NCBI GenBank assembly: GCA_016779705.1
Contig: JADHNB010000003.1
Coordinates: 1-46,182 of the forward strand
Source: Poseidonia sp.
GTDB lineage: Archaea; Thermoplasmatota; Poseidoniia; Poseidoniales; Poseidoniaceae
Reading direction: 5' to 3'
DNA: 46,182 bases
Positions 18,949-44,898 of this stretch are shown piece by piece (position 1 is the stretch's first letter; each line of letters starts with the position of its first letter). The position numbers and the translations under genes were made by a program. Under the pieces are notes generated by a model. It was not told the DNA's origin, searched no databases, and was given only the letters and a program-made list of their open reading frames with translations.

Positions 18949-19113
18949 GTGCCTCACCTGGCCCCGCCTCGGTGAATGAGGTGGGTCCAGCCTGTCGGTA
19001 GAGGGAGGGCATTTGAATCCGTCGGAAGAGGCGCAACAAATCGTCGTGAGTCGGCTGCACGCAAAAGGTAAGGCTTTGAAGGACCCACACTTCCCACGGA
19101 CAACGGTGATACG

Positions 19114-22100: not shown

Positions 22101-22143
22101 GATGGAAGCCGCTCTGTTGGACGATGTGGTCGATGCTTGGTAG
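19114..22143 (+). CDS. RND-superfamily / MMPL-type predicted exporter (COG1033-like)
   Basis: 1009 aa with two six-helix bundles, each preceded by a large soluble loop. The bundles carry the typical GVSYGLHITNRY and GVGVDFSIHIANRI strings. Confidence 0.8.
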   Translation: MDADEGGKNQPPSDGHAATNGRIDALGEKSKAVRAQLSGQLKSMDSKKALDAVLEAPKRFKREWQKSGATGAITRFPIPTIMVFLLLTVYFVTQSGFLDDTRFDDDPNNPALNVNGDLEVYLPDGSKVAELIGKVEEDWSTNVMVVYIESSKYNITDQRILQEISFVENILNPYLSDESDDVIYILSLSTVLKEVNSSAPRIRDAIITEVGELGCSSNPEDDCISREFAENINEAAQSTDEQFGGSYEIPSQTTIDLVIGEMYEQDGSPTAGLNKLARDIEGGENGEPDGLLDRAIMAVAVTENRPAKDIISDTQEVLDTLSALDRPCRFEANGDPIESEGLCDWDDLGLSMVLTGPVPITNAVTEFSFRLFWEIFPMAVVLVAMGLFVFHSDLLQTGLTGMRPLQGFKVVVIAGLPTLCAVFWTLGLIGATNYEVTMTVIIVGPILLALGVSYGLHITNRYAEEEGTRSEKMKASLTSTGRAVFLSAVTTVIGFISLVFTPMAPIQTVGIALSGGIVIVYILTMFMVPNLTLILDLKKPKHPPLKAFDVLVDVPVKHNKAVIGVFIMLILLSATVGQANVEENIDLLGMAPEGESPVVKMKQYSQEFEAGQVGMILVNANVSGDFNDNDNSNDDPVEILEKINNLEASLNEVENTTAVSVVFLMKASGVQVTVSGEQVNELFQLVPCAGVDGCEDIKATAEVLFNQSLSVDTSFWDLLTNPDDFNLPGSQQSQIFLLDVFYASLTKETREIFVSEDFSRSLIYVDMPFIPVADTSKSVDSVNEKAATFQGRYGETAEDLTGVAATAIEVNELIVGSQWTSLGFAIILTLITLAVVFRDIRYSIWTTSPVIATVALQWLVMWRMDVPLSLVTVMIGSILVGVGVDFSIHIANRIRELGGGIQAIRNAAVGTGMSLFEAAVVTSLGMFTAYNIPIPEIQPFITVILILLWVAAASALILLPAIFVTLEKMGIGAVSGSNNMAKKLGLLRLHESGMDVMEAALLDDVVDAW

Positions 22144-29423: not shown

Positions 29424-32400
29424 ATGTGCGGGGAATCGAACATGAGCCTAAATCACAATCAAATGGCGTATGTAGCAATTGTTTCGACCTTGATTTTTGG
29501 GTCTCTTTTCGTGGGTGTTTCCGGCTTCTTCCAAACCAGCGAAAACATCGGTGGTTTTGACAGCGCCGTTGAGGAAGACATTCGTGGGCAATCCGAGTTG
29601 ATGGAATCGGCCACGGATTCCGATGGCGATGGCCTGTCGGACAAACTCGAGGAAACCCAGTACGGTACGGATCCCGACGACCCCGACACCGATAACGACG
29701 GGTTAAGCGATGGCTGGGAGGTTCAACACGGGCTGAATCCACTGGATAACGGAGAATCCGAGGATCTCGAAGTCGATCCAACCCAAAGCGAAGACACCGA
29801 GGCCGAGGGTCTTGAAAATGAAACCGAATCTTGGCCCGACCCCAGCCAAGGTCCCAACGGAGATCCTGACCGAGATGGACTGACCAATCAGGCAGAAGCC
29901 GAACTCGGCACGGACCCACAACGAGCTGACACCGATAACGACGGCCTCAACGACCGCTGGGAATCCCTCTACACCATGGGCGTTCAAACCCCTGGCGGTG
30001 AGGTGATTCTGTTCAACCCGCTTGACGGCAACTGGGATTGCCTGCTCCTTGACCAAGCCATGGTCGACGCCCTCGAGGCTCGTTTTAACGGCGAGAACGG
30101 GATGGCTGATTGGGATGACCTCGCCTCAAACGGACGTCATTCCTGCGACATGGTGCTTGACACCGATGACGATGGTCTTGCAAACTTCGAGGAGGAAGCG
30201 TTCGGGACCAACCCCACGGCCCGTGACTCTGACAACGACTTGATTGACGATATCGTTGAGGTCGCCAACGAGACCATCGCCCTCTACATGGGCATGGGCG
30301 AACAATGCAACGAAAAATTGCTTGACCCTGTTCCTCGTGTCGGACCTTTCTTTGGCGTTGAACGGAGTTGGTTCATGATGGACATGGACAACGATGGATT
30401 GCTCAATGGACCATCGGACTGGGACACCGACGGCGACGGGATGCCTGATGGCTTTGAGTACTGTTATTCGATACCCGGCATGGCGCCGAACGCCGCCTAT
30501 GTGCTGAACCCTTCAAACGCCTCTGACGGCTACGGCGACTGGGACGAGGACGGCATGAACAACCTTGAGGAGTACCAAGTTGCCCAAATTTTTGGTGAGG
30601 GGAACTTCACTTCACCCTGGCTCGAAGACACCGATCGGGACGACATGCCCGACCAGTGGGAAGCCGCCAACGGACTTCACCCCCGTTCCGCCTTGAATCG
30701 AGACGACGACCCCGACTTTGATGGATGGGACCTTGACGGAGACGGCGATGTCATGTACGACACGTTGGAGAACACAGCCGTCGTGCACACCGTCGATGTC
30801 ACGCTCGGGCAACGGGTCGAAACCAATCAACAAGTGGCTTCGGCTCGAATCACGCTCGCCGGGGGAAACCAACAGGTCATTCCTATGCGGGCCCCCGTTG
30901 ATGGCTATGTGTACGAACTCAACGTCGTGGTTGGTCAATCCGTTGATTCACGATTGTTCAGTTGGATGAACATCGTTGAGGAAGAAGAGCGATTCACCAA
31001 CGTGATGGAGTACAAAGCCAACGACCGAGATCAAGACGGTATCTTGGATGGACGTAGCACGGACCCCCTCAATCCGGATACCGACAACGATGGATTGATC
31101 GACGGCATCGAAGTGATGGGTTGGGAAATCTTGGTCGTCAACCGAGGTGTTCAACCCACTTGGGTGACCTCCGACCCCGGACTTTACGATACGGACGCTG
31201 ACGGCCTATCAGATTTTGAAGAGTTTTCCTCAACCTGTAATCTCGGCGGGTCCAACGCGTCCAATCCCGACACGGACTCAGATGGCTTGACCGACCTCGA
31301 GGAAGCCGGTGATAATTTCATGTGGGAAGGTGAGGCTTACTCCACTTCTCCGTGTATGTTTGATACCGATAACGATGGCCTTGAAGACGGCGAAGAAGTC
31401 ATTGCGGGAGAAGACAATTTCCTCACCCATGCCAACAACTCCGATACGGACGACGACGGCTTGGTCGACGGCCAAGAGGTGCTTTTTGTACCACGTCCGT
31501 TCCAAAATCCCACCAACCCCTTGTTGAACGATACGGATGCTGACGGCATGCTCGACGGATGGGAAATGCAGGTAAAATCCGCTGAGGATAATACAAATTC
31601 ACACAGTCTTTGGGTGGCCACCTCCACGTGGCTTCGCCCCGGGTGTGAGGAGACCCAATCCAGTTCTTGTACCATGCAACCCGGCGGTTATGTCTGGCAG
31701 AACTGGCTCGGTGGCTTTGCATTGGAGCCCAAGTTCGCCGTGAGCGAGATGAACCTCACCGGTTTCCAGATGCCGACCAATCCTCTTTGCAACGGTTGCA
31801 ATGGACGCTGGGCTTTGGACCCCTCCCTTGGCTCATTGAAGGACGACACCTTCGATGTAGACAACGACACGCTCGCAAACGGCATGGAGGCGCCTGACCG
31901 CTGGAACACCAACCCCGTTGACGACGACACGGACGGCGATTTGCTCCCGGACGGCTGGGAGGTTTCGTACTCTCAGCTGGCTTTCGAAAATGGCTTGGCA
32001 ACCAACGAAACCGTTGGCGTATACGGCGCACGTGGTGTGATGGACCCTTCCATGCCTGACAGTGATTTGGACGGTATTGATGATGGTTTTGAGGACCCCG
32101 ATGCCGACGGTTTGAACCGGACCGGGCTCATCAAGCGCTACTGTCCGGGTTACAACGACACCACGAACTCCGAGTGCAACATCGATCCCGATTCCCCCGA
32201 TGGGAAACGCTTCTACGACAATCTTGAGAACTACACCAACTACGAAGAGATGCAAAACGGTACCAATCCAATCTCGAACGACACGGACGGCGATGATTGG
32301 AACGACGGTCCAGAAGTGTACTATCAAGACCATGATGGCGACGGTATGGCCACCGGTTGGGAATATCACTTCCAGTTTGATCCCTATGACGGTGCTGACC

Positions 32401-32522
32401 GTATGGTTGACACCGACGGTGATGGCCACGTCAACTTCTGTGAGTACAAGTGGGACACCAACCCAAGAAACCCCGTCTCTTACCCAGGTCAAGGTGAATT
32501 GTGCGATCCATTTAGTGACTGA
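29424..32522 (+). CDS. Giant acidic surface/secreted protein made largely of thrombospondin type-3-like Ca-binding repeats, with an N-terminal TM/signal anchor
   Basis: 1032 aa. N-terminal helix YVAIVSTLIFGSLFVGVSGFF. More than 20 copies of Dx[DN]xDG[LM]xDGxE (DSDGDGLSDKLE, DTDNDGLSDGWE, DTDNDGLNDRWE, DTDNDGLIDGIE, DTDSDGLTDLEE, DTDGDLLPDGWE and others). An identical 17-mer gacaccgataacgacgg occurs at 29685 and 29928. Confidence 0.85.
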   Translation: MCGESNMSLNHNQMAYVAIVSTLIFGSLFVGVSGFFQTSENIGGFDSAVEEDIRGQSELMESATDSDGDGLSDKLEETQYGTDPDDPDTDNDGLSDGWEVQHGLNPLDNGESEDLEVDPTQSEDTEAEGLENETESWPDPSQGPNGDPDRDGLTNQAEAELGTDPQRADTDNDGLNDRWESLYTMGVQTPGGEVILFNPLDGNWDCLLLDQAMVDALEARFNGENGMADWDDLASNGRHSCDMVLDTDDDGLANFEEEAFGTNPTARDSDNDLIDDIVEVANETIALYMGMGEQCNEKLLDPVPRVGPFFGVERSWFMMDMDNDGLLNGPSDWDTDGDGMPDGFEYCYSIPGMAPNAAYVLNPSNASDGYGDWDEDGMNNLEEYQVAQIFGEGNFTSPWLEDTDRDDMPDQWEAANGLHPRSALNRDDDPDFDGWDLDGDGDVMYDTLENTAVVHTVDVTLGQRVETNQQVASARITLAGGNQQVIPMRAPVDGYVYELNVVVGQSVDSRLFSWMNIVEEEERFTNVMEYKANDRDQDGILDGRSTDPLNPDTDNDGLIDGIEVMGWEILVVNRGVQPTWVTSDPGLYDTDADGLSDFEEFSSTCNLGGSNASNPDTDSDGLTDLEEAGDNFMWEGEAYSTSPCMFDTDNDGLEDGEEVIAGEDNFLTHANNSDTDDDGLVDGQEVLFVPRPFQNPTNPLLNDTDADGMLDGWEMQVKSAEDNTNSHSLWVATSTWLRPGCEETQSSSCTMQPGGYVWQNWLGGFALEPKFAVSEMNLTGFQMPTNPLCNGCNGRWALDPSLGSLKDDTFDVDNDTLANGMEAPDRWNTNPVDDDTDGDLLPDGWEVSYSQLAFENGLATNETVGVYGARGVMDPSMPDSDLDGIDDGFEDPDADGLNRTGLIKRYCPGYNDTTNSECNIDPDSPDGKRFYDNLENYTNYEEMQNGTNPISNDTDGDDWNDGPEVYYQDHDGDGMATGWEYHFQFDPYDGADRMVDTDGDGHVNFCEYKWDTNPRNPVSYPGQGELCDPFSD

Positions 32523-32537: not shown

Positions 32538-34097
32538 ATGATGTCACCTTCTCGTTGTGGTCGGATGGTCATCGCCCTGGCGATGATGTGTATTCTAACA
32601 GGAGCAAGCGCCCCTGGAGCATCGGCCTCCCACGTGACTGTTGAATCGTCCTCAATGGTGGTATCGGTGGACCAACCCTCAGGAGTGATGTTCACGGACG
32701 CCGTCAACCTGAGCGGTACCTCAACCCAACCCTTGCGAAACACCAGTTGGACCATCGTGAACATCAGTGGGTCAACTCCCATCACGGTTCTCAGTGGACC
32801 TTACCTGACTTCGGTGGTTCCGTTAGCCGACGGTGTGTATCGTTGGACACTTCTTGTTGACTTACAAGGCGTTGATTGTACCTGCTATGTTGAATTGTCG
32901 ACGATTGATGAGCAACATCGTCCCTTCTCGGTCCACCATGTGGTGTACGTCGGGGATGACCATCAGCGACCGGTGCTCGGGGTTGACAACCCACAATCGT
33001 ACAACACCCCTCATCTCAGCGGTGAACCCTTCATGTTACAACCCTCCACGACCGTGGAATTGAAGTTGATACAGCCCTCTTTGGATTCCACCAACATCTC
33101 CGTCTTTGGTCAGTTGTGTGAAGCACCGTTTGAGGTATGTTTAGGCCCTCCATTCTCGGTGAGTATCCCCCATCGACTAAACAATCAATCCTTGTATCTT
33201 GATCTCGACGCCAACCAATTGGCCCTTAATGAGGGAATTTGGCGCCTTACGGTCCATGTCACTGATGAATTGCTTCGGTCATCTCACCGAATTTCGCTTC
33301 CGTTGGTTCATGACACCACGCCGCCAGAAACCAGTCTCAACGTCCCGGTTTTGGTTCAAGAGGGGGAGGTTTTCCTCGTCTTTGCAGAGGTTGACGATGG
33401 CTACGAGGGCTCGATTTCAACCTTGACATGGTTTGTGGTTGATAACGAAGGTGTCACAAGGTCCCCCACTGTGGCCGAGCGGTTGAGTGAACATCAACTC
33501 AGCCTGAACCTCACTCGGGCGGGCACGTACACCCTCGAACTCACCGTTCGTGACCATGCTGGAAATACGGCGAGGGTTTCCCAACAAGTGATGGTTGAGA
33601 ATCTCAAACCCATCGCTCGTATCTCAGTGGACGGACTCACGGTGGCCCCTTCCAACACCGTTAAACTCGGACCTGGTGATAACTGGTCATTAAGTGGAAC
33701 CATGAGTCAAGACAACGAACCCATCGAATATCTTTGGGTGATTAACGAGGCCACCTCCATCCGAGGGGTACCGTCGTTAACCCAAACGGATTTTTCCGGC
33801 ACAGGCCTTCATACGGTTGAGTTGATTGTGTTCGATGACGATGGTGCTACCGATGCGCAAGTCATCGAAGTCATGATTCTCAAGCCTCCCCAGGAAGAGG
33901 TGGCTGGCACTTCACCCCTCGCGATGACGGTGCTTGGCTTGCTTATTCTCGTGGCCCTCGCAGCCCTTCCATTCATCAAGCGCCAACGCCCCACTGAAAG
34001 TGATTTACCGAGGTGGCAACCCAGTGCCAAAGCTGACGCTATGTTTGCCGCCTCTCGGGCAGGCTTTGATGCAACGGTTGAAGAAGATGAACCATGA
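32538..34097 (+). CDS. Surface protein with signal peptide, Ig-like/PKD domains and a C-terminal TM anchor
   Basis: Signal peptide MVIALAMMCILTGASAPGASA. PKD-like strings GTYTLELTVRDHAGNTA and GLHTVELIVFDDDGATD. C-terminal helix LAMTVLGLLILVALAALPFI followed by the basic KRQR. Confidence 0.8.
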   Translation: MMSPSRCGRMVIALAMMCILTGASAPGASASHVTVESSSMVVSVDQPSGVMFTDAVNLSGTSTQPLRNTSWTIVNISGSTPITVLSGPYLTSVVPLADGVYRWTLLVDLQGVDCTCYVELSTIDEQHRPFSVHHVVYVGDDHQRPVLGVDNPQSYNTPHLSGEPFMLQPSTTVELKLIQPSLDSTNISVFGQLCEAPFEVCLGPPFSVSIPHRLNNQSLYLDLDANQLALNEGIWRLTVHVTDELLRSSHRISLPLVHDTTPPETSLNVPVLVQEGEVFLVFAEVDDGYEGSISTLTWFVVDNEGVTRSPTVAERLSEHQLSLNLTRAGTYTLELTVRDHAGNTARVSQQVMVENLKPIARISVDGLTVAPSNTVKLGPGDNWSLSGTMSQDNEPIEYLWVINEATSIRGVPSLTQTDFSGTGLHTVELIVFDDDGATDAQVIEVMILKPPQEEVAGTSPLAMTVLGLLILVALAALPFIKRQRPTESDLPRWQPSAKADAMFAASRAGFDATVEEDEP

Positions 34098-35489: not shown

Positions 35490-36674
35490 ATGTCCTGGCA
35501 GTCCATCCTTGAACGTCAAGCGTCTTGGTCACAGGCCACGGCCGCTTCCCTGCGCTTGACGGTGGATGAGGCGGTGGTGCTCTACGATGAGGCACCCCTT
35601 CATGCGTTGATGCAGGCGGCCCATCAGCGGCGAATGCAGATGGTTCCAGGTGGATACGTGACCTATTTGGTGGATCGAAACATCAATTACACCAATGTTT
35701 GTACCATCAACTGCCAGTTCTGTTCGTTTTACCGCCCCCCTGGTCATGACGAGACCTACACTCAAACCTACGAAGAGATTTCCAATCGAGTGCGAGAATT
35801 GGAGGCCATCGGTGGTTCTCGAATTCTTATGCAAGGAGGGGTGAATCCCGCCTTGCCCATCACATGGTACCTTGACCTGCTTCGGTACCTTCGTCAACAT
35901 CATCCCTCCATTGCGCTGGACTGTTTCAGTCCCATTGAAATTGAAGGGGTCGCCGAGGTGTGTGGATTAACGACGCTTGAAGTGCTCTCGAGTTTCAAGG
36001 AATCTGGCATGCACGGGTTGCCCGGCGGAGGCGCTGAGATGCTGGTTGAGTCGGTGAGAAAGGATGTTTCTCCCAAAAAAGGGTCGCCCACCAATTGGCT
36101 CAAGGTGATGGAAGAAGCACAATCCTTGGGGTTAACCACGAGTGCCACGAACGTCATCGGCTTTGGTGAAAGCAACGGGGATCGCATTGAACACATGAAC
36201 CAACTTCGCATGTTGCAGGAACGCTCCCTTAACAACCACGGAAACGGTTTCACCTCGTTTATCGCTTGGCCCGTTCAATTGGAAGTCAACTCCTTTGGCC
36301 GCCGAAATCGAGGACAGAACAAGCATGAACTGGGTGCTGGTTCCTCCGAATACCTCCGTCATGTGGCTGTGGCTCGTTTGTTTTTTGACAACATTGACCA
36401 CATCCAAGCCTCTTGGCCCACGATGGGACTTCCCATCGCTCAAATGGCGCTCTTGGGAGGGGCTGACGATGCCGGTTCCACCATGATGGAAGAAAACGTT
36501 GTTTCCGCGTCCGGTACCACAAAAGTTGAAGCCCAGGAAGCCGAACTTCAGTTGGCCATTTCCAGAGCAGGGTTTGTGCCCAAGCGGCGAAACAGTGACT
36601 ACGAACTTCTTGAGACTGAACTCAACACGGCATCCGTTTCTCAACCGGTTGCGCCAACCCCTATGCAGTCGTAG
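35490..36674 (+). CDS. Radical SAM enzyme of the MqnC/MqnE/CofH family (futalosine-pathway type)
   Basis: Contains NINYTNVCTINCQFCSFYR (CxxxCxxC cluster), LMQGGVNP, GLPGGGAEML, and the C-terminal GADDAGSTMMEENVVSASG typical of this family. I cannot distinguish MqnC from MqnE or CofH by eye. Confidence 0.82.
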   Translation: MSWQSILERQASWSQATAASLRLTVDEAVVLYDEAPLHALMQAAHQRRMQMVPGGYVTYLVDRNINYTNVCTINCQFCSFYRPPGHDETYTQTYEEISNRVRELEAIGGSRILMQGGVNPALPITWYLDLLRYLRQHHPSIALDCFSPIEIEGVAEVCGLTTLEVLSSFKESGMHGLPGGGAEMLVESVRKDVSPKKGSPTNWLKVMEEAQSLGLTTSATNVIGFGESNGDRIEHMNQLRMLQERSLNNHGNGFTSFIAWPVQLEVNSFGRRNRGQNKHELGAGSSEYLRHVAVARLFFDNIDHIQASWPTMGLPIAQMALLGGADDAGSTMMEENVVSASGTTKVEAQEAELQLAISRAGFVPKRRNSDYELLETELNTASVSQPVAPTPMQS

Positions 36675-39600
36675 GACCGTAGAAAACCACCCAAACCACG
36701 GCTCGAATGTTACGTCCGCCGTTGCCGATTCCGTCGGAGGGCACATACTCTGCTCCGTTGTAATATCCTCTGTACACCAGGTGGTTGTTGGTCGTGTTAT
36801 CAACCCAATCGGTGATGTCGTATGTCCACTGTTTGACGTCTTGACCAGCGCACCAACCGGCACGACCAAACGGCCACGACCCGAACTGGTTGGCCACGAC
36901 CCCGTTGTTCACTTCGTTTTCACAACCCTCGCTGCTGTAGACGATGGGATGCCATTCGTAGGTTTGGTGACTGCCCATGGTGTAGTAGTGTTGGTGGTCA
37001 CAAAATTCTGCGCAATTCGCCGTGTCTTGATTGAATCCGTGACCGGTGATGGTGGCAACAATCTCAACACGAGTTGTGCCGGAGGGAACGGTGAAGTTGT
37101 GTTGACGATTGTACTTTGACTCGTTGTTGTATGTGCCATCAAATTGACCGCCGCTAAAGGCGTAGGTAGCGTTCGTGGACCGCTCCCCGCTTCCCCAATT
37201 GCTGAAGAGGAAGGTGACGGTGAGGTCTCCTTTGTTGGCACCTGAATACTTGAATCGGCGCTCTTCGCCATCGTTGAGCATGAACAGATACGGTGTGATG
37301 TCCGTGAGCCACATGCCCTCCCGCCCATAGGTGGTGATCCACCGGACCATTTCGGTGTTGCAGACCGAGCTGTTCGAAACATCGCACACGTAGAGGTAAG
37401 CGAGGTAGTCCCATTCGTGACACCCACCGTACGTTCCATCTGATTTTTGATAGCGGTTGGTACGCTCGTAGCACGCGTGTTCGTGGTAAACTTCGAGGGT
37501 ATCGTAGGAACTCAAAATTTCAGGGAGTTCGAAGGTGGCGTTCGTGAACGATGAATGACCTCCTCCCCACCCTCCTGTATGGCGTTGGAAATCCATGATT
37601 GAGACGGCGTGAACGCCAGGGTCCGAACTCCGAATTTTCGCTGGGAATTCGGCTACCCATTGATTGGTTTCATACGACAGGTGGTACGGGTCATTAGATT
37701 GGCTTGTCCAAGCGTAGAGGGAACCGGTTTCTCGAGCCAATTGGAAACGATCGATGCCGATGTACAACGGATTGTTGAACGAGGTGATCATGGAACCCAG
37801 TCCTCCACCGATGTTGCTTGCATCCATGTCGATGTAGTGAATTCGGTCGTCCCAATACGCTTCTTCGCTTGTGGTTAAACCGGCTAAGACGGCGTTTCGT
37901 TGTTGAACCACATCGTTGTGATAGGTGGTGTCAAACGACCCGTAGAAGAGATGCGTGTTTTCAGGAAGGTTGCGTATGAATTTACCTGGATTTTGTCCCC
38001 AGGTCGCTCCATTGCTGCTTCCACCCGAGTTGGTGTATTTGAACATGAAAAAGTAGACATCATGGCCCGTCCAACGGTCTTTGAAATTGAACGAGCCGTT
38101 CAACGTGGGGACGGAGAATTGTGGGACGATTTGCATCGGGGCGTTCAACGATGAAGCGTCGGTCCAGTTGACGGGCAATTGAATGACGGCACAGCCAACC
38201 TGGTCCACCGTCCACCGTTCGGGTGAATTTGCACAAGCGTCAACGTTGGCAAACACGCCGTCTCCATCAATGTCTGCACACCCCGCTGCGTTGACCACCA
38301 AGCCCGAAGGTGTGCCTTCGCATTGGTCTGTGAAGTCGTTGACACCGTCTTGGTCAGTGTCTCGTTCGACGGCTGCGCAACCGTGTTCATTCACGTCCAA
38401 ACTGCCCAACGGCGTTTGTGGGCACAGGTCCAAGGTTGAACCGGTGGCATTGACATCGTTGACACCGTCGTTATCGTCATCTTCGTCTTCCGTTGCGTCT
38501 TGACATCCATCGTTGTCCCAATCGTTGGCGGTCGTGGAAGACCATCCCGCAACCCCTTTCGGACACCGGTCAACGGTGTCGTTGTGATCGTCGTTATCAT
38601 CGTTGTCATCTTCATCCAAGTCGGAGCAACCGTCGTTGTCCCAATCGCTGTACCGGTTGGAATACCAACCTTTGCGGCCAACGGGGCACGAATCCTCGAC
38701 ATCCTCTACACCATCGTTGTCGTCGTCGGTGTCTTCATCCGCATCGTGGCAACCATCGTAGTCGTAATCGGCGCTTGGTGTGCTCACCCATCCGTAAGAG
38801 GTCGGGCACCCATCGTGAAGGTCAATGATGCCGTCGTTGTCGTCATCGTCGTCTTCGTCGTTGTCTCGACAACCGTCTTGGTCGCCATCCGTTGCGGGTG
38901 TTGATTGCCACCCATCGTTTGCACCGATGCCGTTGGGGCATCGATCGTTAGCGTTCTGGACGCCATCACCGTCTTCGTCATCGCCAGCCCCTTCGATGAC
39001 CACGGTCGTGGTTGCAACGTCGTTGGCCACGGTGAAGCGACCGCAGGTCGCCGTCGTGGTGATCGTATGAGATGACGTTGCCTCCGTGAAGTCAACCATC
39101 ACTTTCCATTCACCGCGGTCGTCAAGGCTTAACCCGCCAACCGTGCCGTCGGTGATTTCGTATTGAACGGTGCATGATTCAAGGTTGGCGTGGTCCACGC
39201 GTCCCTCATACCAGACCACGTTTGGTTCTTCGAGGACCAAACGAGCGGCGGTGGTGAGCACCGGCGCTGGCTCGATGGGCGCTTGGACGCTAAGGCTGAG
39301 AACAAGCGGTTGGAACTCGGGTGCCATTGCGGTGCTTCCCGTGTTTGAAAATCGAACCGAGACGATGTGATCGCCGACGGTATCTGGTACAAAGGAAAGC
39401 TGGTAGCCGTTGGAGTGTTCAATCCATTCAACCTGTGTCATCGGAGCAAAGGAAGGATTCAGAACCGAAGGCTCTGCCAGGTACGTTCCCGCTCCTTGTT
39501 GATCGACGTTCAAGATGTAAATGGCTTCCTCTCCGAGAACCATCGTTTCTGGCGCGTTCACCCACCTCGCTTCAAGGCTGTAGGTCTCCACGACGGGTTC

Positions 39601-39693
39601 GACGATGTCGGGGGCGGGCTCACTCATCCCTAAGCAACCCGATACGAGCATCAATCCGACAAAACAGAGCGCCGTCAAGCGTTGTGGCTGCAT
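36661..39693 (-). CDS. Secreted lipobox protein: Ig-like N-terminal domains, Cys-containing thrombospondin type-3 repeats, an unknown middle domain, and a C-terminal PNGase F-like domain
   Basis: Start set at ATG 39693, giving MQPQRLTALCFVGLMLVSGC (signal plus lipobox-like LVSGC). This start also clears the upstream gene, which ends at 39731. TSP3 modules have the form DxDxDGxxDxxDxCP. The C-terminal approximately 310 aa carry CHEWDYLAYLYV, RWITTYG, TITGHGF..NCAEFC and GRAGWCAGQDV, matching PNGase F strings as I recall them. Confidence 0.85.
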   Translation of the reverse strand: MQPQRLTALCFVGLMLVSGCLGMSEPAPDIVEPVVETYSLEARWVNAPETMVLGEEAIYILNVDQQGAGTYLAEPSVLNPSFAPMTQVEWIEHSNGYQLSFVPDTVGDHIVSVRFSNTGSTAMAPEFQPLVLSLSVQAPIEPAPVLTTAARLVLEEPNVVWYEGRVDHANLESCTVQYEITDGTVGGLSLDDRGEWKVMVDFTEATSSHTITTTATCGRFTVANDVATTTVVIEGAGDDEDGDGVQNANDRCPNGIGANDGWQSTPATDGDQDGCRDNDEDDDDDNDGIIDLHDGCPTSYGWVSTPSADYDYDGCHDADEDTDDDNDGVEDVEDSCPVGRKGWYSNRYSDWDNDGCSDLDEDDNDDNDDHNDTVDRCPKGVAGWSSTTANDWDNDGCQDATEDEDDDNDGVNDVNATGSTLDLCPQTPLGSLDVNEHGCAAVERDTDQDGVNDFTDQCEGTPSGLVVNAAGCADIDGDGVFANVDACANSPERWTVDQVGCAVIQLPVNWTDASSLNAPMQIVPQFSVPTLNGSFNFKDRWTGHDVYFFMFKYTNSGGSSNGATWGQNPGKFIRNLPENTHLFYGSFDTTYHNDVVQQRNAVLAGLTTSEEAYWDDRIHYIDMDASNIGGGLGSMITSFNNPLYIGIDRFQLARETGSLYAWTSQSNDPYHLSYETNQWVAEFPAKIRSSDPGVHAVSIMDFQRHTGGWGGGHSSFTNATFELPEILSSYDTLEVYHEHACYERTNRYQKSDGTYGGCHEWDYLAYLYVCDVSNSSVCNTEMVRWITTYGREGMWLTDITPYLFMLNDGEERRFKYSGANKGDLTVTFLFSNWGSGERSTNATYAFSGGQFDGTYNNESKYNRQHNFTVPSGTTRVEIVATITGHGFNQDTANCAEFCDHQHYYTMGSHQTYEWHPIVYSSEGCENEVNNGVVANQFGSWPFGRAGWCAGQDVKQWTYDITDWVDNTTNNHLVYRGYYNGAEYVPSDGIGNGGRNIRAVVWVVFYGPTTA
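38194..38982 (-). repeat. Tandem array of TSP type-3 repeat modules (about 43-aa / 129-nt period) inside the lipoprotein gene
   Basis: Protein aa 238-500. Four near-regular units [CP-x3-4-GW-x-S-x4-5-D-W/Y-D-x-DGC-x-D-x-DED-x-DDDNDG-x-x-D-x-x-D-x], followed by two or three looser units (DTDQDGVNDFTDQCEG, DIDGDGVFANVDACAN). It is visible in the DNA as recurring gtcgttgtc/atcgtcatc runs. Confidence 0.8.
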
Positions 39694-39730
39694 GGATAAA
39701 CCTCCTGTTCGTTCGCCTTCAATGTGTTGT

Positions 39731-40876
39731 TCACGAAATGTCTGATTCGGAACGGCCGTCGAAAACTGGCAAGGATTCAACGACCACCTTGGTCGGCGGG
39801 TGAGAGACACGCAGTGGCTCAACCCAGAGCAAAGGACCTCCTTTGGTTCGGTCAATACGAAGAATGCATTCCCAATGAATGCGGACCAAGTCTGAGTGAA
39901 CGCTGCCCGGCCACTCTCCTGTGGGGCAGGCCAGCGTCATGGACTTGCCCTCCGTCCACCGTTTCTGCTCCCCCATGGCCATGATGCGCATCGGTCGAAG
40001 GTACAAACCTCCCTTGACCTCTTGGAGTTCCATCGGAGCGTCCTCACCTCCGGCCGTTCCGTCGTCCAAGCCAGAAATCCAATGATGCGGGAGTTCCGTG
40101 GAGAGCCCAGGGGGTGGTTGGCGATTGGCTCCCCGTTCAAGCACCTGCAACAACGTTTCCCGAGCAGGAGGCAGCACACCAACTCGCCAAAACACATCCA
40201 CGTGGTTCCAAGTGGATGGGCGTTGATCGAGGTGCAGCGTGATTTCCAAAGGCTTGTTGGCGACGGGATTCCCTTGTATCTCAAGTTTGGGCCGTGTTGG
40301 ATGCGTGGCCAAAAACCGGTTCTGTCGGCGTAACTCAACCAAATTTGCGAGCACGCGAATGAACAGAGGCGCAAAGATGAGCGGGACCACAAAGACGGCA
40401 AGCGCAGGGTAGTCAAGCAACCCCCAACGAACCGTCTCCAACCCGTAAACGGGGAGGCCAAAAAACAACACGAGGGGGGAGATGAAGAGATAGAACAAGG
40501 CGGCTAATAGCACGATGACCACGCCGTTGATGAATTGACGCAAGACGTTGTGGACGGGATTGGGGACCAAATACCAACCCCTTCGTTGGCGGTATACCGT
40601 GTCCACAAAATCTTCTTGTTCCAAAAAAACCTCATCCACCTCGGGCTCCAATCGTTGGCCGTCGAACCAATATTCACGTTGTATGAACCACGATTCCTGT
40701 GTGCCCAAACGGAACGATGGAGCAAGGCCCTTGAGGTGGCTCATGGCTTCGTCCTGAGTTTCAAATTGACCTTTTGATAGCGTACGCTTTGCGATGGGCA
40801 GGCGTTCTGGATTCCACCTTGACGACTCAAATGGGGGATACCGGACGCTTTGAATTTCATCAAGGGACGGCATCAC
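39731..40876 (-). CDS. Hypothetical membrane protein (soluble N-terminal domain, three or four central TM helices, soluble C-terminal domain)
   Basis: 381-aa ORF located 6 nt downstream of the reductase gene on the same strand. TM helices include VVIVLLAALFYLFISPLVLFFGLPVYGL and ALAVFVVPLIFAPLFIRVLANLV. No motif was recognised. Confidence 0.6.
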   Translation of the reverse strand: MMPSLDEIQSVRYPPFESSRWNPERLPIAKRTLSKGQFETQDEAMSHLKGLAPSFRLGTQESWFIQREYWFDGQRLEPEVDEVFLEQEDFVDTVYRQRRGWYLVPNPVHNVLRQFINGVVIVLLAALFYLFISPLVLFFGLPVYGLETVRWGLLDYPALAVFVVPLIFAPLFIRVLANLVELRRQNRFLATHPTRPKLEIQGNPVANKPLEITLHLDQRPSTWNHVDVFWRVGVLPPARETLLQVLERGANRQPPPGLSTELPHHWISGLDDGTAGGEDAPMELQEVKGGLYLRPMRIMAMGEQKRWTEGKSMTLACPTGEWPGSVHSDLVRIHWECILRIDRTKGGPLLWVEPLRVSHPPTKVVVESLPVFDGRSESDIS

Positions 40877-40882
40877 AACGCC

Positions 40883-42148
40883 TCACGTCAGAAGCAACCG
40901 AACACCTGCTTTCAGAGCAAGCGGTCGGAAGGCAGGAACTTGACGAAGCAAGGCCATTCCCAGCGGGACAGGCTTCTCAATGTCGCCAATTTCGTTGATG
41001 ATCTTCAAGGTGTTGGGGTGTGCAAACGCCTTGAAATGCTTGTCGAGGGTTTCGTCTGAGCAGTCGCTCACAAGGAGGTTTCTCAGGCTTCTGGCTCGGT
41101 CTTGGTCCCGCTTCATGGCTTCCCATGGTTTCTTCGTGATGCGTTTCAATCGTTCTTCATTCAACTCGTTGGATTGAATCGCCTCGGCCAAGGGTTCAAC
41201 AATGCACTGAATTTGATGAAATCCAGGTCCGATGCCGCCACCGGTGGTGGGTTTTGCCATGCCAGCGGCATCACCCAGTAGCATGACTCGAGATTTGACC
41301 GCCTTTTTGACCATACCCGAGGGGACGGGGCCGCAATACCGGGCGACCTCTTGCACGTTCGCAAAACGGTCTCGCCACAGAGGGTGGTCCACCAGTGCTT
41401 GATAGCAAGCTTCAATGCTTCGACCATTCAATCGCTCGGCGGTTGACCAGAGTCCAATACGATGTGAACCGAAGCCTGATGGAATCACCCAAGCAAAAAA
41501 ACCAGGCGCAATTTCGGATCCACTGTACATTTCCAACCATCGGTCTCGACCTTGATAACCAACCACCTCGGTTTGAAATCCAATCATCAGTTCCTTTGGG
41601 CGTCCCATGCGAAAGGTTCGGCGGGTCCAACTGTGAGCGCCATCGGCTCCAATCAGAAGTTTACAGCGGAGCTTTACGTTCTCTCCCGAACGGTTGAGGA
41701 GGAGTTCTACCCCCCCGTCATCGGTTTTGGCTTCCTTGGCGGTGGTGGCCAGCCAGAGGTCTGAACCGCGTTCCATGGCTTGTTGCACGACGAATTGGTC
41801 AAACCGCTTTCGGCAAACAACGTACGTTCGAAGAACGCCGTCCGTGCCAACGGGTACCAAGGTTCCACTTGGACCGTGAATCAGGGCTCCGTCCACTTCT
41901 TCGAGGACCGTGTGATGAGCAGCCACAGCGTCCATGGCCGAGGGCGTCACGAGGCCGGCGCATTGAAACGGACGGCCAATTTCGTCGTGTTCTTCAATCA
42001 TCAATACCCGTAGGCCACGTTCAGCGAGCAACCAAGCCGCTCGTCCGCCAACAGGGCCTGCCCCAACAACGACCACATCGTAGTCGTAAGGCTCCATGGC
42101 AAAGGGTCGGGAGGGTTGTGTTTCAACCTTCCTTCTGTCCAGGTGCAT
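40883..42148 (-). CDS. FAD-dependent geranylgeranyl reductase family protein (archaeal lipid/prenyl reductase type)
   Basis: FAD dinucleotide-binding motif YDVVVVGAGPVGGRAAWLLAERG, then LLIGADGAHS and VMLLGDAAGMAKPTTGGGI. ATG 42148 shares one base with the topoisomerase stop (TGATG). An internal ATG at 42097 (MEPYDYDVVVVG) is an equally good start. Confidence 0.87.
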   Translation of the reverse strand: MHLDRRKVETQPSRPFAMEPYDYDVVVVGAGPVGGRAAWLLAERGLRVLMIEEHDEIGRPFQCAGLVTPSAMDAVAAHHTVLEEVDGALIHGPSGTLVPVGTDGVLRTYVVCRKRFDQFVVQQAMERGSDLWLATTAKEAKTDDGGVELLLNRSGENVKLRCKLLIGADGAHSWTRRTFRMGRPKELMIGFQTEVVGYQGRDRWLEMYSGSEIAPGFFAWVIPSGFGSHRIGLWSTAERLNGRSIEACYQALVDHPLWRDRFANVQEVARYCGPVPSGMVKKAVKSRVMLLGDAAGMAKPTTGGGIGPGFHQIQCIVEPLAEAIQSNELNEERLKRITKKPWEAMKRDQDRARSLRNLLVSDCSDETLDKHFKAFAHPNTLKIINEIGDIEKPVPLGMALLRQVPAFRPLALKAGVRLLLT

Positions 42149-44898
42149 CAAGAGCGCTTTGCGAACTTGTAGGCAACGGACTCGTTTTTGCGAAGGTACA
42201 ACGAAGCGGCGAAAGGATTTCCAGTCTTTTTGGAGGTGAAATCATCGAACGGTCCCAAATTTTTGGTTTCAATCAGCGTTTTTGCCTCTTCACGGGTGAT
42301 GTCACGTTTCGAAATACACCGTTCAATGTGGATTTTGCAAGCTGAACCGCCTTCTTCGACGGTGAAATGCGTCTCCGTTTCGATGATGTTCGCCTTGTGG
42401 GTGGGACAAACCCCAACCACGCCCGGTTCAACCGGGAAGCGCTTTGCATCCGCACCGGCGTCTCGTGGAGGGAAATCAAAGGACACTCGGTTCTTATCGA
42501 GAACCAAAAAAGCACTGAAGGGGCGATTGCGTTTTGAAGTAAAATCCTCGAGGAGCGCCGACTTCCCTTGGGTAAAGATGGGCTTCGCTTCTTCGGGAGT
42601 TACCGGGCGTTTGCACATGACGTTCTGCATGCCTCTGAAGGAGCAATCGTCGAAATCGCACACATAGGCTGTTGAAGTAATTCGGATGGTACCGTGTTCA
42701 CAGACAGGGCAAGCGCACAGTTCAGCGTCGCTTTCACTGGCTGCAGCCGTGGTGCTCCCCTTGGCAACGACCTTCCCGTCGTGTTCAAGGACAACGGATG
42801 TTTCGTAACCCTCGCCGGCTTGAGAGAAAAAGCCGTGAAGGTCGTCCAATTGCTTCGAATCGATCAGCCGGGTGGCTGTTGTGCGGTCAAACCAGCGTCC
42901 CGATGTGTCTTTCCAGAACACGAACGGACACCCCTTATCGCGCCCCTCATTCAATTCACACTGGTAGGAAAGGGTTGTTTCGATGACGTTTGCGGAGCAC
43001 GTTGGGCATGCTCCAAGCGGTGGATCGTTGGCGTAGAGTTGACTCCGGTCATGGTCGCGAATCATGGTGACCAACGTGGTGGTTTGGTCAATGATTTTGT
43101 CCATGTAGGAATCCATGGATTCCTCGCCTCTTTGGACCGCCAGCAGGGATGCTTCCATGTCTCCGGTGAGTTCAGGTGAAGTGATCCATTCGACGGGGAT
43201 TCTTCGTAAGATGTCAATCATCCGAATGCCGTGGGGGGCTGCGCTGATGGTACCGTTGCGTGAACGGCGAATGTAATTCCTGTCAATCAACTTCTCGATG
43301 GTGTCAGCACGTGTGGCTGGGGTGCCAAGTCCCTTGTCTTTCATGGCTTCAGCCAATTCATCGTCTTCGATGTGCTTTCCTGCGTGTTCCATCAACTGCA
43401 GCAAGCTCGCCTCTTTGAGTCGGTTCTTGGGTTTGGAGAATTCCTCGGAGAACTCGTGTTCTTCGAGGGTTGATGGTGCTGGATTTGAGGGCAACTGACC
43501 CCATCCATCGGGGACATTGTCCTTCTTTGGAACAACCGCTCGCCATCCGGGTTGGTCAAGGGCCTCAACTTCTTTGATGAATTGATGGCCACCCTTGCTG
43601 GTGGTCCGCTTGGTGACCGTCCAAGCCGATGGAGGGTGCCAGGAGGCGAGGAAATTGCGGACGATGAGGTCATACAACTTGGCATGATCTCCGCTGAGAT
43701 TGGCCGGTGGTTGTTGACCCGTTGGTACAATGGCGTAGTGGTCGGAGACTTTGCTGTTGTCAAAATTTCTGCTCGCATTGGCCAAGCCATCGCTTTGCAA
43801 GCGTGCGACATGTTCGCTGTAGTCTCCTTGTGACTTGATTTGCTCAAGGGTCTTTGCAACCGTTTCATGCATGTCCTCGGGAAGATGCTTTGAATCCGTA
43901 CGGGGATAGGTGGTCAGTTTGAATTTGTCGTACAGGTCTTGGGCCACACTCAAGGTTCGCTTTGCCGACCAAGACCATAGGCTGTTGGCACGTTTCTGGA
44001 GCGTGGTGAGGTCAAAATTCAAGGGCGGCTGTTCGTGTTTGGTCCGATGCGTTTCTGCGGTCGAAAACGGTGAGGCACTGCTCAAGACGGCCTCAATGGC
44101 TTCTTTTTCAACCAATTCAACGATCCGATGGGATTTCAGTTCCGGGCGCTCATCGTCGTCTTTGTGGTCCACTCGTTCCCATCGGGCAGTCCATCGGGCC
44201 TTCCCTGACTGGAACGTGGCGTTGAGTTGCCAATAGGGAAGGGGGACGTGTGAAAGCACCTCCAATTCGTGGTCCACGACCATGGCCAAGGTGGCGGTTT
44301 GAACGCGGCCCAGGGAATTGGACGACCGATCGCGGCGATTTTGAGGCAGGAAGGTGTTGGCCACTCGAGAACCGTTCATCCCGATGATCCAGTCTGCATG
44401 AGAACGAGCGTAGGCTGCATCGCTCAACGCCTTGTATTCATCGCCGCTTTTGCGATTTTCAAAGGCCGAAAGCATGGCATCGAAGGTCATGGACTGCATC
44501 CACATTCGAGATAGCGGCGTGTTCACCTTGGCGTGGGCAACGATGGTTCTGAAGATCAATTCGCCTTCCCTGGCAGCATCACAGGCGTTGACAATTTCCG
44601 TAACGGCTTTATCCTTCAGCAATTTTTTGATGGCGTTGAGTTGGGTTTTGTTCCGTCCACCTTTGGGTTTGTACTCAAAGGTGGGTGGAATGTAGGGCAA
44701 GCGGTCAATGGTTTTTCGCCAGTTTTTGAAGGCTTCATCGTACTCGTCCATGAATTTGAGTTCGAGCAAATGACCCACGGCCCACGTGATGATGATGTCG
44801 TCGCTTTGCCAGTGGGTGTCCAATTTTTTGCCTACCCCGAGGACGTTTGCGAGGTCCTCGGCAACACTGGGTTTCTCAGCAATGATAACGATGGACAT
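42148..44898 (-). CDS. topA: Type IA DNA topoisomerase (TopB/Topo III-like) with three C-terminal Zn-ribbon plus 'topoisomerase C-terminal repeat' units
   Basis: Toprim N-terminus MSIVIIAEKPSVAEDLANVLG and an acidic motif (ACDAAREGE). The active-site region contains TYPRTDS. The C-terminus has three copies of Cys4-type ribbons followed by ..F.SK+..PF.A.L.L......F.F (LEDFTSKRNRPFSAFLVLDKNRVSFDF; FDDFTSKKTGNPFAASLYLRKNESVAYKF). ATG 44898 is preferred over TTG 44913. Confidence 0.92.
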   Translation of the reverse strand: MSIVIIAEKPSVAEDLANVLGVGKKLDTHWQSDDIIITWAVGHLLELKFMDEYDEAFKNWRKTIDRLPYIPPTFEYKPKGGRNKTQLNAIKKLLKDKAVTEIVNACDAAREGELIFRTIVAHAKVNTPLSRMWMQSMTFDAMLSAFENRKSGDEYKALSDAAYARSHADWIIGMNGSRVANTFLPQNRRDRSSNSLGRVQTATLAMVVDHELEVLSHVPLPYWQLNATFQSGKARWTARWERVDHKDDDERPELKSHRIVELVEKEAIEAVLSSASPFSTAETHRTKHEQPPLNFDLTTLQKRANSLWSWSAKRTLSVAQDLYDKFKLTTYPRTDSKHLPEDMHETVAKTLEQIKSQGDYSEHVARLQSDGLANASRNFDNSKVSDHYAIVPTGQQPPANLSGDHAKLYDLIVRNFLASWHPPSAWTVTKRTTSKGGHQFIKEVEALDQPGWRAVVPKKDNVPDGWGQLPSNPAPSTLEEHEFSEEFSKPKNRLKEASLLQLMEHAGKHIEDDELAEAMKDKGLGTPATRADTIEKLIDRNYIRRSRNGTISAAPHGIRMIDILRRIPVEWITSPELTGDMEASLLAVQRGEESMDSYMDKIIDQTTTLVTMIRDHDRSQLYANDPPLGACPTCSANVIETTLSYQCELNEGRDKGCPFVFWKDTSGRWFDRTTATRLIDSKQLDDLHGFFSQAGEGYETSVVLEHDGKVVAKGSTTAAASESDAELCACPVCEHGTIRITSTAYVCDFDDCSFRGMQNVMCKRPVTPEEAKPIFTQGKSALLEDFTSKRNRPFSAFLVLDKNRVSFDFPPRDAGADAKRFPVEPGVVGVCPTHKANIIETETHFTVEEGGSACKIHIERCISKRDITREEAKTLIETKNLGPFDDFTSKKTGNPFAASLYLRKNESVAYKFAKRS

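Follow-up and report, generated by a model that had tools for sequence, protein, structure and literature searches.

A predicted surface-displayed peptide:N-glycanase with an Ngly2-type catalytic module in marine Poseidoniales archaea

What would a planktonic archaeon do with a protein that resembles a peptide:N-glycanase (PNGase) held at its own surface? The question is raised by a minus-strand gene (36661..39693) in a 46,182-nucleotide stretch of DNA from Poseidonia sp. (contig JADHNB010000003.1, positions 1 to 46,182; hereafter the window), which encodes 1010 amino acids and ends with a TAG stop. Residues are numbered with the methionine encoded at 39693 as residue 1, and all parts of the gene given below lie on the minus strand. 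A sequence-only reading of this DNA had proposed a PNGase F-like domain at the C-terminus of an archaeal lipoprotein with TSP3 repeats. We interpret the protein as a surface-displayed, probably lipid-anchored PNGase (EC 3.5.1.52 type) of Poseidoniales (Marine Group II, MGII) that strips N-glycans from exogenous glycoproteins, and assign this interpretation a probability of about 0.62. Its closest solved and characterised relative is zebrafish Ngly2 and not PNGase F from Elizabethkingia.

The last ~310 residues form a domain of the PNGase F superfamily, with a similarity far beyond chance. The Pfam model N-glycanase_C (PF09113) matches the whole protein with E=1.8e-17 (63.9 bits, cutoff 25) and is precomputed on essentially all orthologues. 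A phmmer search of the PDB with the last 479 residues retrieved entry 9LWG ('Si:dkey-256h2.1') with E=7.7e-40 and three PNGase F sequences with E=3e-8 to 1e-7, the latter over PNGase F residues 2-261 and thus over both halves of the enzyme. A family profile (A2) built from 52 diverse relatives, which apart from one close orthologue are 27-35% identical to the archaeal protein, matched 9LWG with E=4.3e-107, PNGase F with E~1e-27 and the putative PNGases from Bacteroides with E~1e-8 (4QHB) and E~1e-6 (3KS7). Taken together, the phmmer and profile alignments span PNGase F residues 2-11 through ~259-286, so that homology of the N-terminal sandwich is covered.

The predicted structure leads to the same assignment. 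A full-length AlphaFold2 model calculated with 40 close orthologues was good for the N-terminal immunoglobulin (Ig)-like domains and poor for the C-terminal module, where the predicted local distance difference test score (pLDDT) was 30-80. A second run, restricted to the C-terminal 496 residues and based on a 64-sequence alignment that included bacterial (Myxococcota) relatives, gave a confident model with a mean pLDDT of 91.6 and a predicted template modelling score (pTM) of 0.90. In Foldseek searches of the PDB this model matched 9LWG with E=3.6e-37 and a template modelling (TM) score of 0.81, normalised to the query. It superimposed on both halves of PNGase F (1PNF, 1PNG, 3PMS, 1PGS) with E values of 5e-17 to 1e-16, TM scores of 0.71-0.75 normalised to PNGase F and root mean square deviations (rmsd) of 3.7-4.7 Å; the values for 1pnf_A are E=1e-16, TM 0.74 and rmsd 3.7 Å, and 1PNG reached TM 0.75. 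PNGase F-II, 7ZGN, 9VLA, 3KS7 and 4QHB followed with E ~1e-10 to 1e-12 (TM 0.33-0.53, normalised to the target), and the other strong matches were PNGases without exception. The model contains the two eight-stranded jelly-roll sandwiches seen in the crystal structures. The N-terminal sandwich (aa 694-840, 37174..37614), aligned to PNGase F residues 9-137 and to Ngly2, carries W761-D762-Y763 (37405-37413), the pairs Cys741-Cys758 and Cys770-Cys778 and the loop FKYSGANKGD (37225-37254). The C-terminal sandwich (aa 841-1010, 36664..37173) is the part recognised by PF09113 and contains H885 (37039-37041), E896 (37006-37008), R944 (36862-36864), W947 and the pairs Cys894-Cys898 and Cys924-Cys948. 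The PNGase F-like domain of the sequence-only reading is thereby borne out by family model, family profile and superposition on the crystal structure alike. The range originally assigned to it (36664-37596, aa 700-1010) comprises nearly the whole two-sandwich domain, which in the model starts at residue 694.

Active-site residues were mapped with the family-profile alignment, in which the chain index of 9LWG equals the numbering of the Ngly2 publication plus 25. Trp59/Asp60/Arg61 of PNGase F correspond to Trp420/Asp421/His422 in Ngly2 and to Trp761/Asp762/Tyr763 in the archaeal protein. PNGase F Trp191 is replaced by histidine in both (Ngly2 His546, archaeal His885), Glu206/Trp207 correspond to Glu555/Phe and Glu896/Phe897, and Arg248/Trp251 to Arg/Trp and Arg944/Trp947, respectively. 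All six disulfide cysteines of PNGase F (Cys51-56, Cys204-208 and Cys231-252) are conserved in Ngly2 and have aligned counterparts in the archaeal protein (Cys741/758, Cys894/898 and Cys924/948), in which the disulfides are predicted. Two further features are shared with Ngly2 and absent from PNGase F, namely an extra cysteine pair (Cys770/778 in the archaeal protein) and an alanine (Ala819) at the position of PNGase F Glu118. No substitution occurs at W761-D762-Y763, H885, E896, R944 or any of the four cysteine pairs in two sets of archaeal orthologues, one of 120 and one of 40 sequences. At 27-37% identity, in the diverse alignments, the aligned catalytic and cysteine positions keep their residue throughout or to at least 90%; the alignment underlying profile A2 shows no variation at H885, R944 and the cysteines, and conservation of at least 90% at E896. 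The putative catalytic Asp and Glu, whose loss upon rigorous alignment had been named as an outcome speaking against the assignment, are thus retained as D762 and E896, the equivalents of Asp60 and Glu206, together with the equivalent of Arg248 and the disulfide cysteines. A study of PNGaseL defined three features of the superfamily: an aromatic-Asp-aromatic/positive motif, a His plus Glu, for which PNGase F is the exception with Trp instead of His, and a Trp/Tyr platform under the second N-acetylglucosamine (GlcNAc) and the β-mannose (PMC12381499). W761-D762-Y763 and H885 with E896 account for two of the three.

The conserved unit is larger than the PNGase fold. It comprises ~496 residues, starts ~185 residues upstream of the range first proposed and consists of a domain resembling thioredoxin (Tx-like domain), a linker helix and the PNGase fold, which is also the organisation of Ngly2. 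9LWG is the structure of zebrafish Ngly2 (si:dkey-256h2.1), the long-sought acid PNGase of fish, an ovary and lysosomal enzyme whose identification and structure date from 2025 (Honda et al., 2025, PMC12753239). The archaeal Tx-like domain (peroxiredoxin/DsbE-type, aa ~520-668, 37690..38136) is modelled with pLDDT >90 and is homologous to that of Ngly2: positions 38-188 of profile A2 align with residues 53-198 of the 9LWG chain with E=6e-8. Foldseek matches to the thioredoxin fold include Bcp1 (3DRN), DsbE (3GL3) and thioredoxin-like proteins, at E values of 4e-4 and weaker and TM scores of ~0.5-0.58 for the best. There is no cysteine between residues 502 and 740, and because the Tx-like domain is cysteine-free it is not redox-active. 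The second 9LWG stretch matched by the profile, chain residues 341-687, covers the linker and the PNGase domain. It begins with a 22-residue helix (aa 669-690, 37624..37689; DSSP helix at residues 155-176 of the model) that aligns from chain residue 341 and corresponds to the linker helix described for Ngly2. In both proteins a Tx-like domain without cysteine motif, a linker helix and a domain of the PNGase F fold are thus arranged alike in space, and the two share the Trp-Asp motif, the His of GHG, the Glu of (A/G)EFC and the Arg of GR(A/G)GWC.

The archaeal protein also differs from Ngly2 in several respects. In the fish enzyme a protease-associated (PA) domain (chain ~199-340), skipped by the profile, is inserted in the Tx-like domain and forms a peptide cleft, whereas the archaeal Tx-like domain is contiguous; the cleft should hence be more open than in Ngly2. 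Ngly2 His422 is replaced by Tyr763 and the loop bearing Ngly2 Trp480 has no archaeal counterpart, so that His546 is the only one of these three residues with an equivalent (H885). The archaeal protein is therefore not a strict Ngly2 orthologue but belongs to a wider family of Tx-like-PNGase proteins. Ngly2 is lysosomal and works at pH 3.5-4.5, whereas the archaeal protein is predicted to be extracellular and probably lipid-anchored on a stalk of Ig-like domains and TSP3 repeats; it presumably works near seawater pH, and an acid optimum appears unlikely given this location.

With PNGase F from Elizabethkingia meningoseptica the archaeal protein shares the two-jelly-roll fold, the equivalents of Asp60, Glu206, Arg248, Trp59 and Trp251, the cysteines of the three disulfides and the predicted secretion, at an identity of ~17-18%. 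PNGase F lacks the Tx-like domain, the helix, the stalk and the fourth cysteine pair, and differs at the positions of Trp191 (His885), Arg61 (Tyr763), Trp207 (Phe897) and Glu118 (Ala819) and in the Trp120 loop, which is deleted in the archaeal protein. PNGase F-II (4R4X/4R4Z), the Bacteroides/Phocaeicola PNGases (3KS7, 4QHB, 7ZGN) and PNGase Bb (9VLA) have the same catalytic fold. Like the biochemically characterised PNGaseL, they are surface or secreted enzymes for nutrient acquisition, in which accessory modules orient the catalytic domain outward (PMC12381499). They differ from the archaeal protein by an N-terminal bowl-like domain or β-sheet modules, by the lack of a Tx-like domain, by much lower sequence similarity and by their bacterial hosts.

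The nearest relatives overall form a large prokaryotic family with Myxococcota among its named members. An exhaustive search of 1.84 billion cluster representatives yielded 1078 clusters at E<=1e-3 and 230 at E<=1e-30. Many of the proteins found, ~530-600 residues long and bacterial, match the whole 496-residue unit in a single stretch. The named bacterial relatives are mostly Myxococcota (Vulgatibacter, Sandaracinus and Myxococcales metagenome-assembled genomes, MAGs); others are a protein named as a substrate of the type IX secretion system (T9SS; a JGI name given without taxon) and one from an uncultured marine bacterium. Prokaryotic 'peptide-N-glycosidase F-related proteins' of ~530-750 residues contain the entire Tx-like and PNGase unit at 27-40% identity to the archaeal protein, and a Vulgatibacter-type subclade shares the archaeal short loop motif GAN(K/G)(G/Y)D. 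In place of the archaeal N-terminal part of ~500 residues, with lipobox, Ig-like domains and TSP3 stalk, the bacterial relatives have only a signal peptide or a short linker, or else a T9SS signal or inserted domains. A neighbour-joining tree without support values places the archaeal proteins (~1000-1335 aa) in a single clade within the bacterial radiation; zebrafish Ngly2 lies apart from them, together with a shark Ngly2 orthologue. This topology is only suggestive of an old transfer from a bacterium to an archaeon followed by vertical inheritance. Where relatives have insertions in the unit, these sit most often at the C770-C778 loop. Many bacterial or metagenomic relatives (P0128-P0136, P0141, P0151, P0155 and others in our numbering) carry an insertion of 40-230 residues exactly at this disulfide loop of the N-terminal PNGase half, one of 1392 residues (P0127) contains two PNGase modules, and some carry PF23106 or PF13385 domains.

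The N-terminal half of the protein has the features of an exported, tethered stalk. The signal peptide with lipobox (aa 1-20, 39634..39693; MQPQRLTALCFVGLMLVSG-C20) coincides with a Kyte-Doolittle hydrophobic segment at residues 5-23 and with a helix at residues 4-17 in the model. It is the sole hydrophobic segment of the protein, which has no other transmembrane segment on the Kyte-Doolittle scale. In the lipobox LMLV-S-G-C20 both G19 and C20 are invariant, the orthologue consensus being LSGC, and the protein is probably anchored by a lipid at Cys20. It is followed by a tandem of two Ig-like β-sandwich domains (aa ~35-140 and ~143-235, 38989..39591), all-β and modelled with pLDDT ~88, which resemble titin Z1Z2, filamin C, protocadherins and Sap S-layer domains in Foldseek (E~1e-7 to 1e-8); a match to Pfam Filamin is sub-threshold (E=0.0033). 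The adjoining acidic region (aa 236-505, 38179..38988) contains ~6-8 units of the DxDxDGxxDxxDxCP type with regularly spaced cysteines and 29% Asp/Glu, and gave ten overlapping matches in a motif scan. Pfam TSP_3 matches it in four stretches below threshold (E=2.4e-4, 21.1 bits, cutoff 25) and NCBIfam throspo3_MtsC far below the family cutoff (E=4e-6), while PF02412 is precomputed on several orthologues. The region is modelled without regular secondary structure (pLDDT 70-82), and nearly all of its Asp and Cys residues are invariant in 40 orthologues. We presume it to be a Ca2+-binding stalk. Both the TSP3 repeats and the lipobox of the sequence-only reading are thus present, with conservation at the residues that define them. 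The mature protein has an isoelectric point (pI) of ~4.1 and ten N-x-S/T sequons. Export is indicated by the single N-terminal hydrophobic segment, the invariant G19-C20 lipobox, the eight conserved cysteines of the catalytic domain and the pI of 4.1. In the orthologue alignment the Ig-like region is least conserved, with a column identity to the query of 31-44%, and the values increase towards the PNGase domain, where they reach 77-84%; it is the enzyme head that is constrained and the stalk that varies.

The gene belongs to the archaeal genome. Full-length orthologues with 55-100% identity fall into more than 100 clusters, apparently all from marine metagenomes or MAGs, and those that are named come from MAGs of Candidatus Poseidoniaceae, Poseidoniales, Euryarchaeota or Thermoplasmatota. 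With each GTDB species represented by a single genome, a scan yielded at least 517 relatives. The best 80 of these, which were examined, all belong to Poseidoniales (60-91% identity, closest in Poseidonia sp.), one of them on a contig labelled Verrucomicrobiales. In the window TopoI, a geranylgeranyl reductase (GGR)-like gene, a hypothetical protein with two transmembrane segments and the PNGase gene lie on one strand, and an MqnC-like gene, aminopeptidase P (AmpP), a PKD protein and a TSP3_bac protein converge on them. This order is kept in 65-75 of the 80 Poseidoniales loci, the remaining ones being truncated contigs, and across the 80 species the degree of conservation of the PNGase module equals that of the flanking TopoI, GGR and AmpP. 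In at least 80 species of Poseidoniales the PNGase gene thus belongs to the syntenic core. The archaeal origin put forward in the sequence-only reading is supported by orthologues and synteny, and, given the shared gene order, we reject the possibility that a 'bacterial' enzyme had entered the sequence through contamination or mis-assembly. The window itself encodes archaeal housekeeping functions. The single contig with a bacterial label (NZEQ01000045.1, 'Verrucomicrobiales bacterium ARS100', locus L011) has the full archaeal order TopoI, GGR, hypothetical protein, PNGase, MqnC, AmpP, PKD and TSP3 at 75-92% identity to the window and almost certainly derives from Poseidoniales, having been mis-binned into a bacterial MAG.

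From homology, fold, residue conservation, domain architecture, taxonomic distribution and synteny we infer catalysis, lipidation and surface display, Ca2+ binding and the substrate as follows. The secreted protein would be held by a lipid at Cys20, and the stalk of two Ig-like domains and Ca2+-binding TSP3-like repeats would project the PNGase module outward, possibly tens of nanometres off the membrane in Ca2+-rich seawater. The catalytic unit would be the C-terminal ~496 residues with the redox-dead Tx-like domain, the linker helix and the two-β-sandwich PNGase F fold. By homology, hydrolysis of the amide between Asn and the innermost GlcNAc is predicted to take place at the interface of the sandwiches, carried out by Asp762, which has Trp761 and Tyr763 as neighbours, jointly with His885, Glu896 and Arg944. 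Asp762 would be the key catalytic residue, and Glu896, His885 and Arg944 would hold the first GlcNAc and the reaction intermediate. The products would be the whole N-glycan and ammonia, with Asp left in the peptide. This scheme follows the established mechanism of PNGase F (Kuhn et al., 1995, as cited in PMC12753239).

Substrates would be exogenous glycoproteins or glycopeptides, for example from phytoplankton, with N-glycans probably of the high-mannose type. Poseidoniales are described as proteolytic heterotrophs that need external amino acids and are linked to phytoplankton (PMC6461757, PMC8821943), and diatoms possess hundreds of N-glycoproteins with high-mannose or hybrid glycans (PMC8678454). 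Those members of the superfamily that have been characterised, among them zebrafish Ngly2 and six diverse others, are active PNGases, most often on high-mannose glycans (PMC12753239, PMC12381499). It is on account of this ecology, the diatom N-glycoproteins and the high-mannose preference of the superfamily that removal of exogenous N-glycans appears as the best-supported role. Deglycosylation would open the polypeptide, and possibly the glycan as well, to a proteolytic, peptide-importing archaeon.

Several points weigh against this interpretation. The most important concerns the site at which the glycan core is bound. The Glu118/Trp120 loop of PNGase F is replaced by the loop FKYSGANKGD, which is six residues shorter and has no Trp. 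By alignment, the third superfamily feature, provided by Trp120 in PNGase F and Trp480 in Ngly2, is accordingly not conserved. Among the archaeal sequences 21 of 22 have the short Trp-less loop, among the bacterial ones 62 of 89. The W480A mutant of Ngly2 has feeble residual activity (PMC12753239), and in PNGaseL and PNGaseDr the aromatic platform comes from another loop (PMC12381499). Recognition of the glycan core may therefore differ from that in PNGase F and Ngly2, and this loop is the main structural ground for caution with regard to substrate specificity. Tyr816, as a candidate, or an aromatic residue of another loop may substitute for the platform. W795 (in GMWLTD) was considered as the counterpart of Ngly2 Trp480 and rejected, Trp480 being W505 of the 9LWG chain, which aligns with PNGase F Trp120. 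Of the two N-glycanase family models proposed as a check in the sequence-only reading, the C-terminal one is significant, as described above, whereas the N-terminal one (N-glycanase_N, PF09112) is not, with E=0.15 and 12.2 bits against a cutoff of 22.4 for the N-half alone. No glycan-utilisation or peptidase locus was found around the PNGase gene, that is, no linked glycoside hydrolase, glycan transporter or secreted peptidase. Lipoprotein processing in Poseidoniales is itself presumed, and catalytic activity of the archaeal members is deduced from homology: the module is real, its PNGase activity is probable and predicted. Finally, a PNGase at the surface could in principle attack the cell's own N-glycoproteins, and the protein itself has ten sequons.

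The last point leads to the first of three other explanations, in which the enzyme is an active PNGase for prokaryotic instead of eukaryotic N-glycoproteins, serving turnover or remodelling of the cell's own S-layer and surface or acting on competing archaea, bacteria or viruses. The location at the cell's own surface would suit this function, as would the strictly syntenic position of the gene among housekeeping genes and not in a nutrient-acquisition cluster, and the loop that contacts the second GlcNAc and the β-mannose in the characterised enzymes is short and Trp-less here. The same short loop, though, is found in the majority of the bacterial family members counted above, and to our knowledge bacteria generally lack Asn-linked surface glycans of such kind. 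The residues that contact the chitobiose (W761, D762, H885, E896 and R944) are canonical, and in other members another loop can supply the aromatic platform (PMC12381499). We consider prokaryotic targets unlikely. A peculiar loop, combined with the replacement of Glu118 by Ala819 and the failing Pfam model for the N-half, could also point to an amidase with the PNGase fold and another specificity, acting on Asn glycans not linked through GlcNAc, on free glycosyl-asparagine or on another amide-linked sugar; several tested members of the superfamily, such as oyster PNGaseCg, are narrow or hardly active on standard substrates. Ngly2, a bona fide PNGase, nevertheless has Ala at the Glu118 position too, in the archaeal protein the first GlcNAc and the scissile amide would be contacted by canonical residues, and we know of no alternative chemistry for the PNGase fold, which makes a different amidase rather improbable.

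The architecture of the stalk bears on yet another explanation, according to which the PNGase fold is the non-catalytic or weakly catalytic, lectin-like head of an adhesin and the Ig-like and TSP3 stalk serves attachment to particles or algal cells. Ig-like domains with TSP3 repeats are typical of adhesins, Rinke et al. read TSP3-containing genes of Poseidoniales as adhesion factors (PMC6461757), and a lectin function had been allowed for in the sequence-only reading. Binding alone does not, however, require the observed retention of Asp, Glu, Arg and His, which is complete among the archaeal orthologues and complete or at least 90% among relatives at 27-37% identity. The constraint is strongest on the catalytic module and weakest on the stalk, and the characterised relatives are all enzymes. 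An adhesin with a lectin-like head has, like the deviating amidase, a low probability, and a PNGase acting on exogenous glycoproteins is the interpretation retained here.

The basic identification is not new, since GenBank names are already of the PNGase type: AIF05981.1 is a 'putative N-glycosidase F [uncultured marine group II/III euryarchaeote KM3_18_D06]' and other relatives are entered as 'peptide-N-glycosidase F-related protein'. With archaeal members so named and a superfamily so broad, the description of PNGase F as a classic Bacteroidetes enzyme in the sequence-only reading is dated. A literature search for a PNGase or N-glycosidase from archaea or from MGII/Poseidoniales found no paper in the library searched, and archaea are not mentioned in the Ngly2 publication (PMC12753239). 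What is added here is the occurrence in archaea of the Ngly2-type Tx-like and PNGase module minus the PA domain, its strict synteny, its display by lipobox, Ig-like domains and TSP3 repeats and the divergent glycan-core loop. Fold, chemistry and database name were known, and the results refine existing knowledge without overturning it.

Marine Group II is uncultured and its diet has been inferred only from genomes. A conserved, outward-facing PNGase offers a concrete and testable hypothesis, namely that phytoplankton glycoproteins are deglycosylated before proteolysis, and expressing the catalytic module does not require a culture of the archaeon. At least one 'thrombospondin' gene of Poseidoniales, of the type used as evidence for adhesion, is predicted to carry an enzyme. 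The Ngly2-type architecture is extended from animals and bacteria to archaea, and a seawater-adapted PNGase with an altered core-binding loop could serve glycan analysis. A bolder view is offered tentatively, as one that we doubt somewhat more than we believe it: with this protein a peptide:N-glycanase would be known from archaea for the first time, as a core enzyme, strictly conserved and tethered to the surface, of the archaea that are most abundant in the plankton, de-N-glycosylation of algal glycoproteins would be a defining step of MGII feeding, the Trp-less loop could shift core specificity and, as a corollary, the Tx-like and PNGase module of animal Ngly2 would be an ancient prokaryotic invention shared with archaea.

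With regard to the gene itself, the open reading frame (ORF) lister gave 36661-39855 on the minus strand, 1064 residues from a TTG at 39855. The ATG at 39693 is taken as the real start because a ribosome-binding-like GGAGG motif, read directly from the sequence (39701..39705), lies 8-12 nucleotides 5' of it, because a database protein 100% identical to the product has 1010 residues and most orthologues have 1009-1013, and because the product then begins with a typical signal peptide. The motifs quoted in the sequence-only reading all sit in this one ORF at the coordinates it implied, as found by a motif scan: GGCHEWDYLAYLYV at 37387-37428, RWITTYG at 37324-37344, LTDITPYL at 37285-37308, TITGHGF at 37033-37053, NCAEFC at 37000-37017, GCENE at 36913-36927 and GSWPFGRAGWCAGQDV at 36835-36882. 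The PNGase F strings given there for comparison agree with the 1PNF and 3PMS sequences in the HMMER output. At its 3' end the gene overlaps the convergent MqnC-like radical-SAM gene by 14 nucleotides (36661-36674), which leaves no intergenic room for a terminator.

This convergent gene (35490-36674, plus strand) encodes a CofH/MqnC-type radical-SAM enzyme resembling those of the futalosine pathway, and a geranylgeranyl-reductase-like flavoprotein is encoded on the other side (40883-42151, minus strand); both are syntenic and fit archaeal quinone and lipid metabolism. Between the latter and the PNGase gene lies a conserved 381-residue hypothetical protein (39731-40876, minus strand) with two predicted transmembrane segments and no Pfam match, syntenic in 71 of the 80 loci. 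Its gene shares the strand of the PNGase gene, ends 38 nucleotides upstream of the start of the latter and may be co-transcribed with it. Two further surface or secreted proteins are encoded on the plus strand. One is a 519-residue PKD/Ig-like surface protein (32538-34097) with an N-terminal signal and a C-terminal hydrophobic anchor, which is syntenic yet, unlike its neighbours, fast-evolving (21-46% identity across species). The other, three genes from the PNGase gene, is a secreted protein of 1032 residues (29424-32522) whose only Pfam match is TSP3_bac (E=4e-16), the rest being without known domain; its position is kept in 67 of the 80 Poseidoniales loci and its best tblastn segment is 63-93% identical, the highest value among the neighbours. 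A paralogue of the PNGase module or of its stalk was not found within the window. Other neighbours encode RtcB, AlaRS, a class I aminoacyl-tRNA synthetase, PolB, a Y-family polymerase, SHMT and an aminotransferase, besides the aminopeptidase P, MqnC-like radical-SAM, geranylgeranyl-reductase-like and TopoI genes already mentioned. The mechanically called ORFs for the class I aminoacyl-tRNA synthetase (16456-19395, minus strand) and for a divergent transporter of the MMPL/RND type (19114-22143, plus strand) overlap by ~280 nucleotides at their 5' ends, so that at least one of the true starts must lie further downstream.

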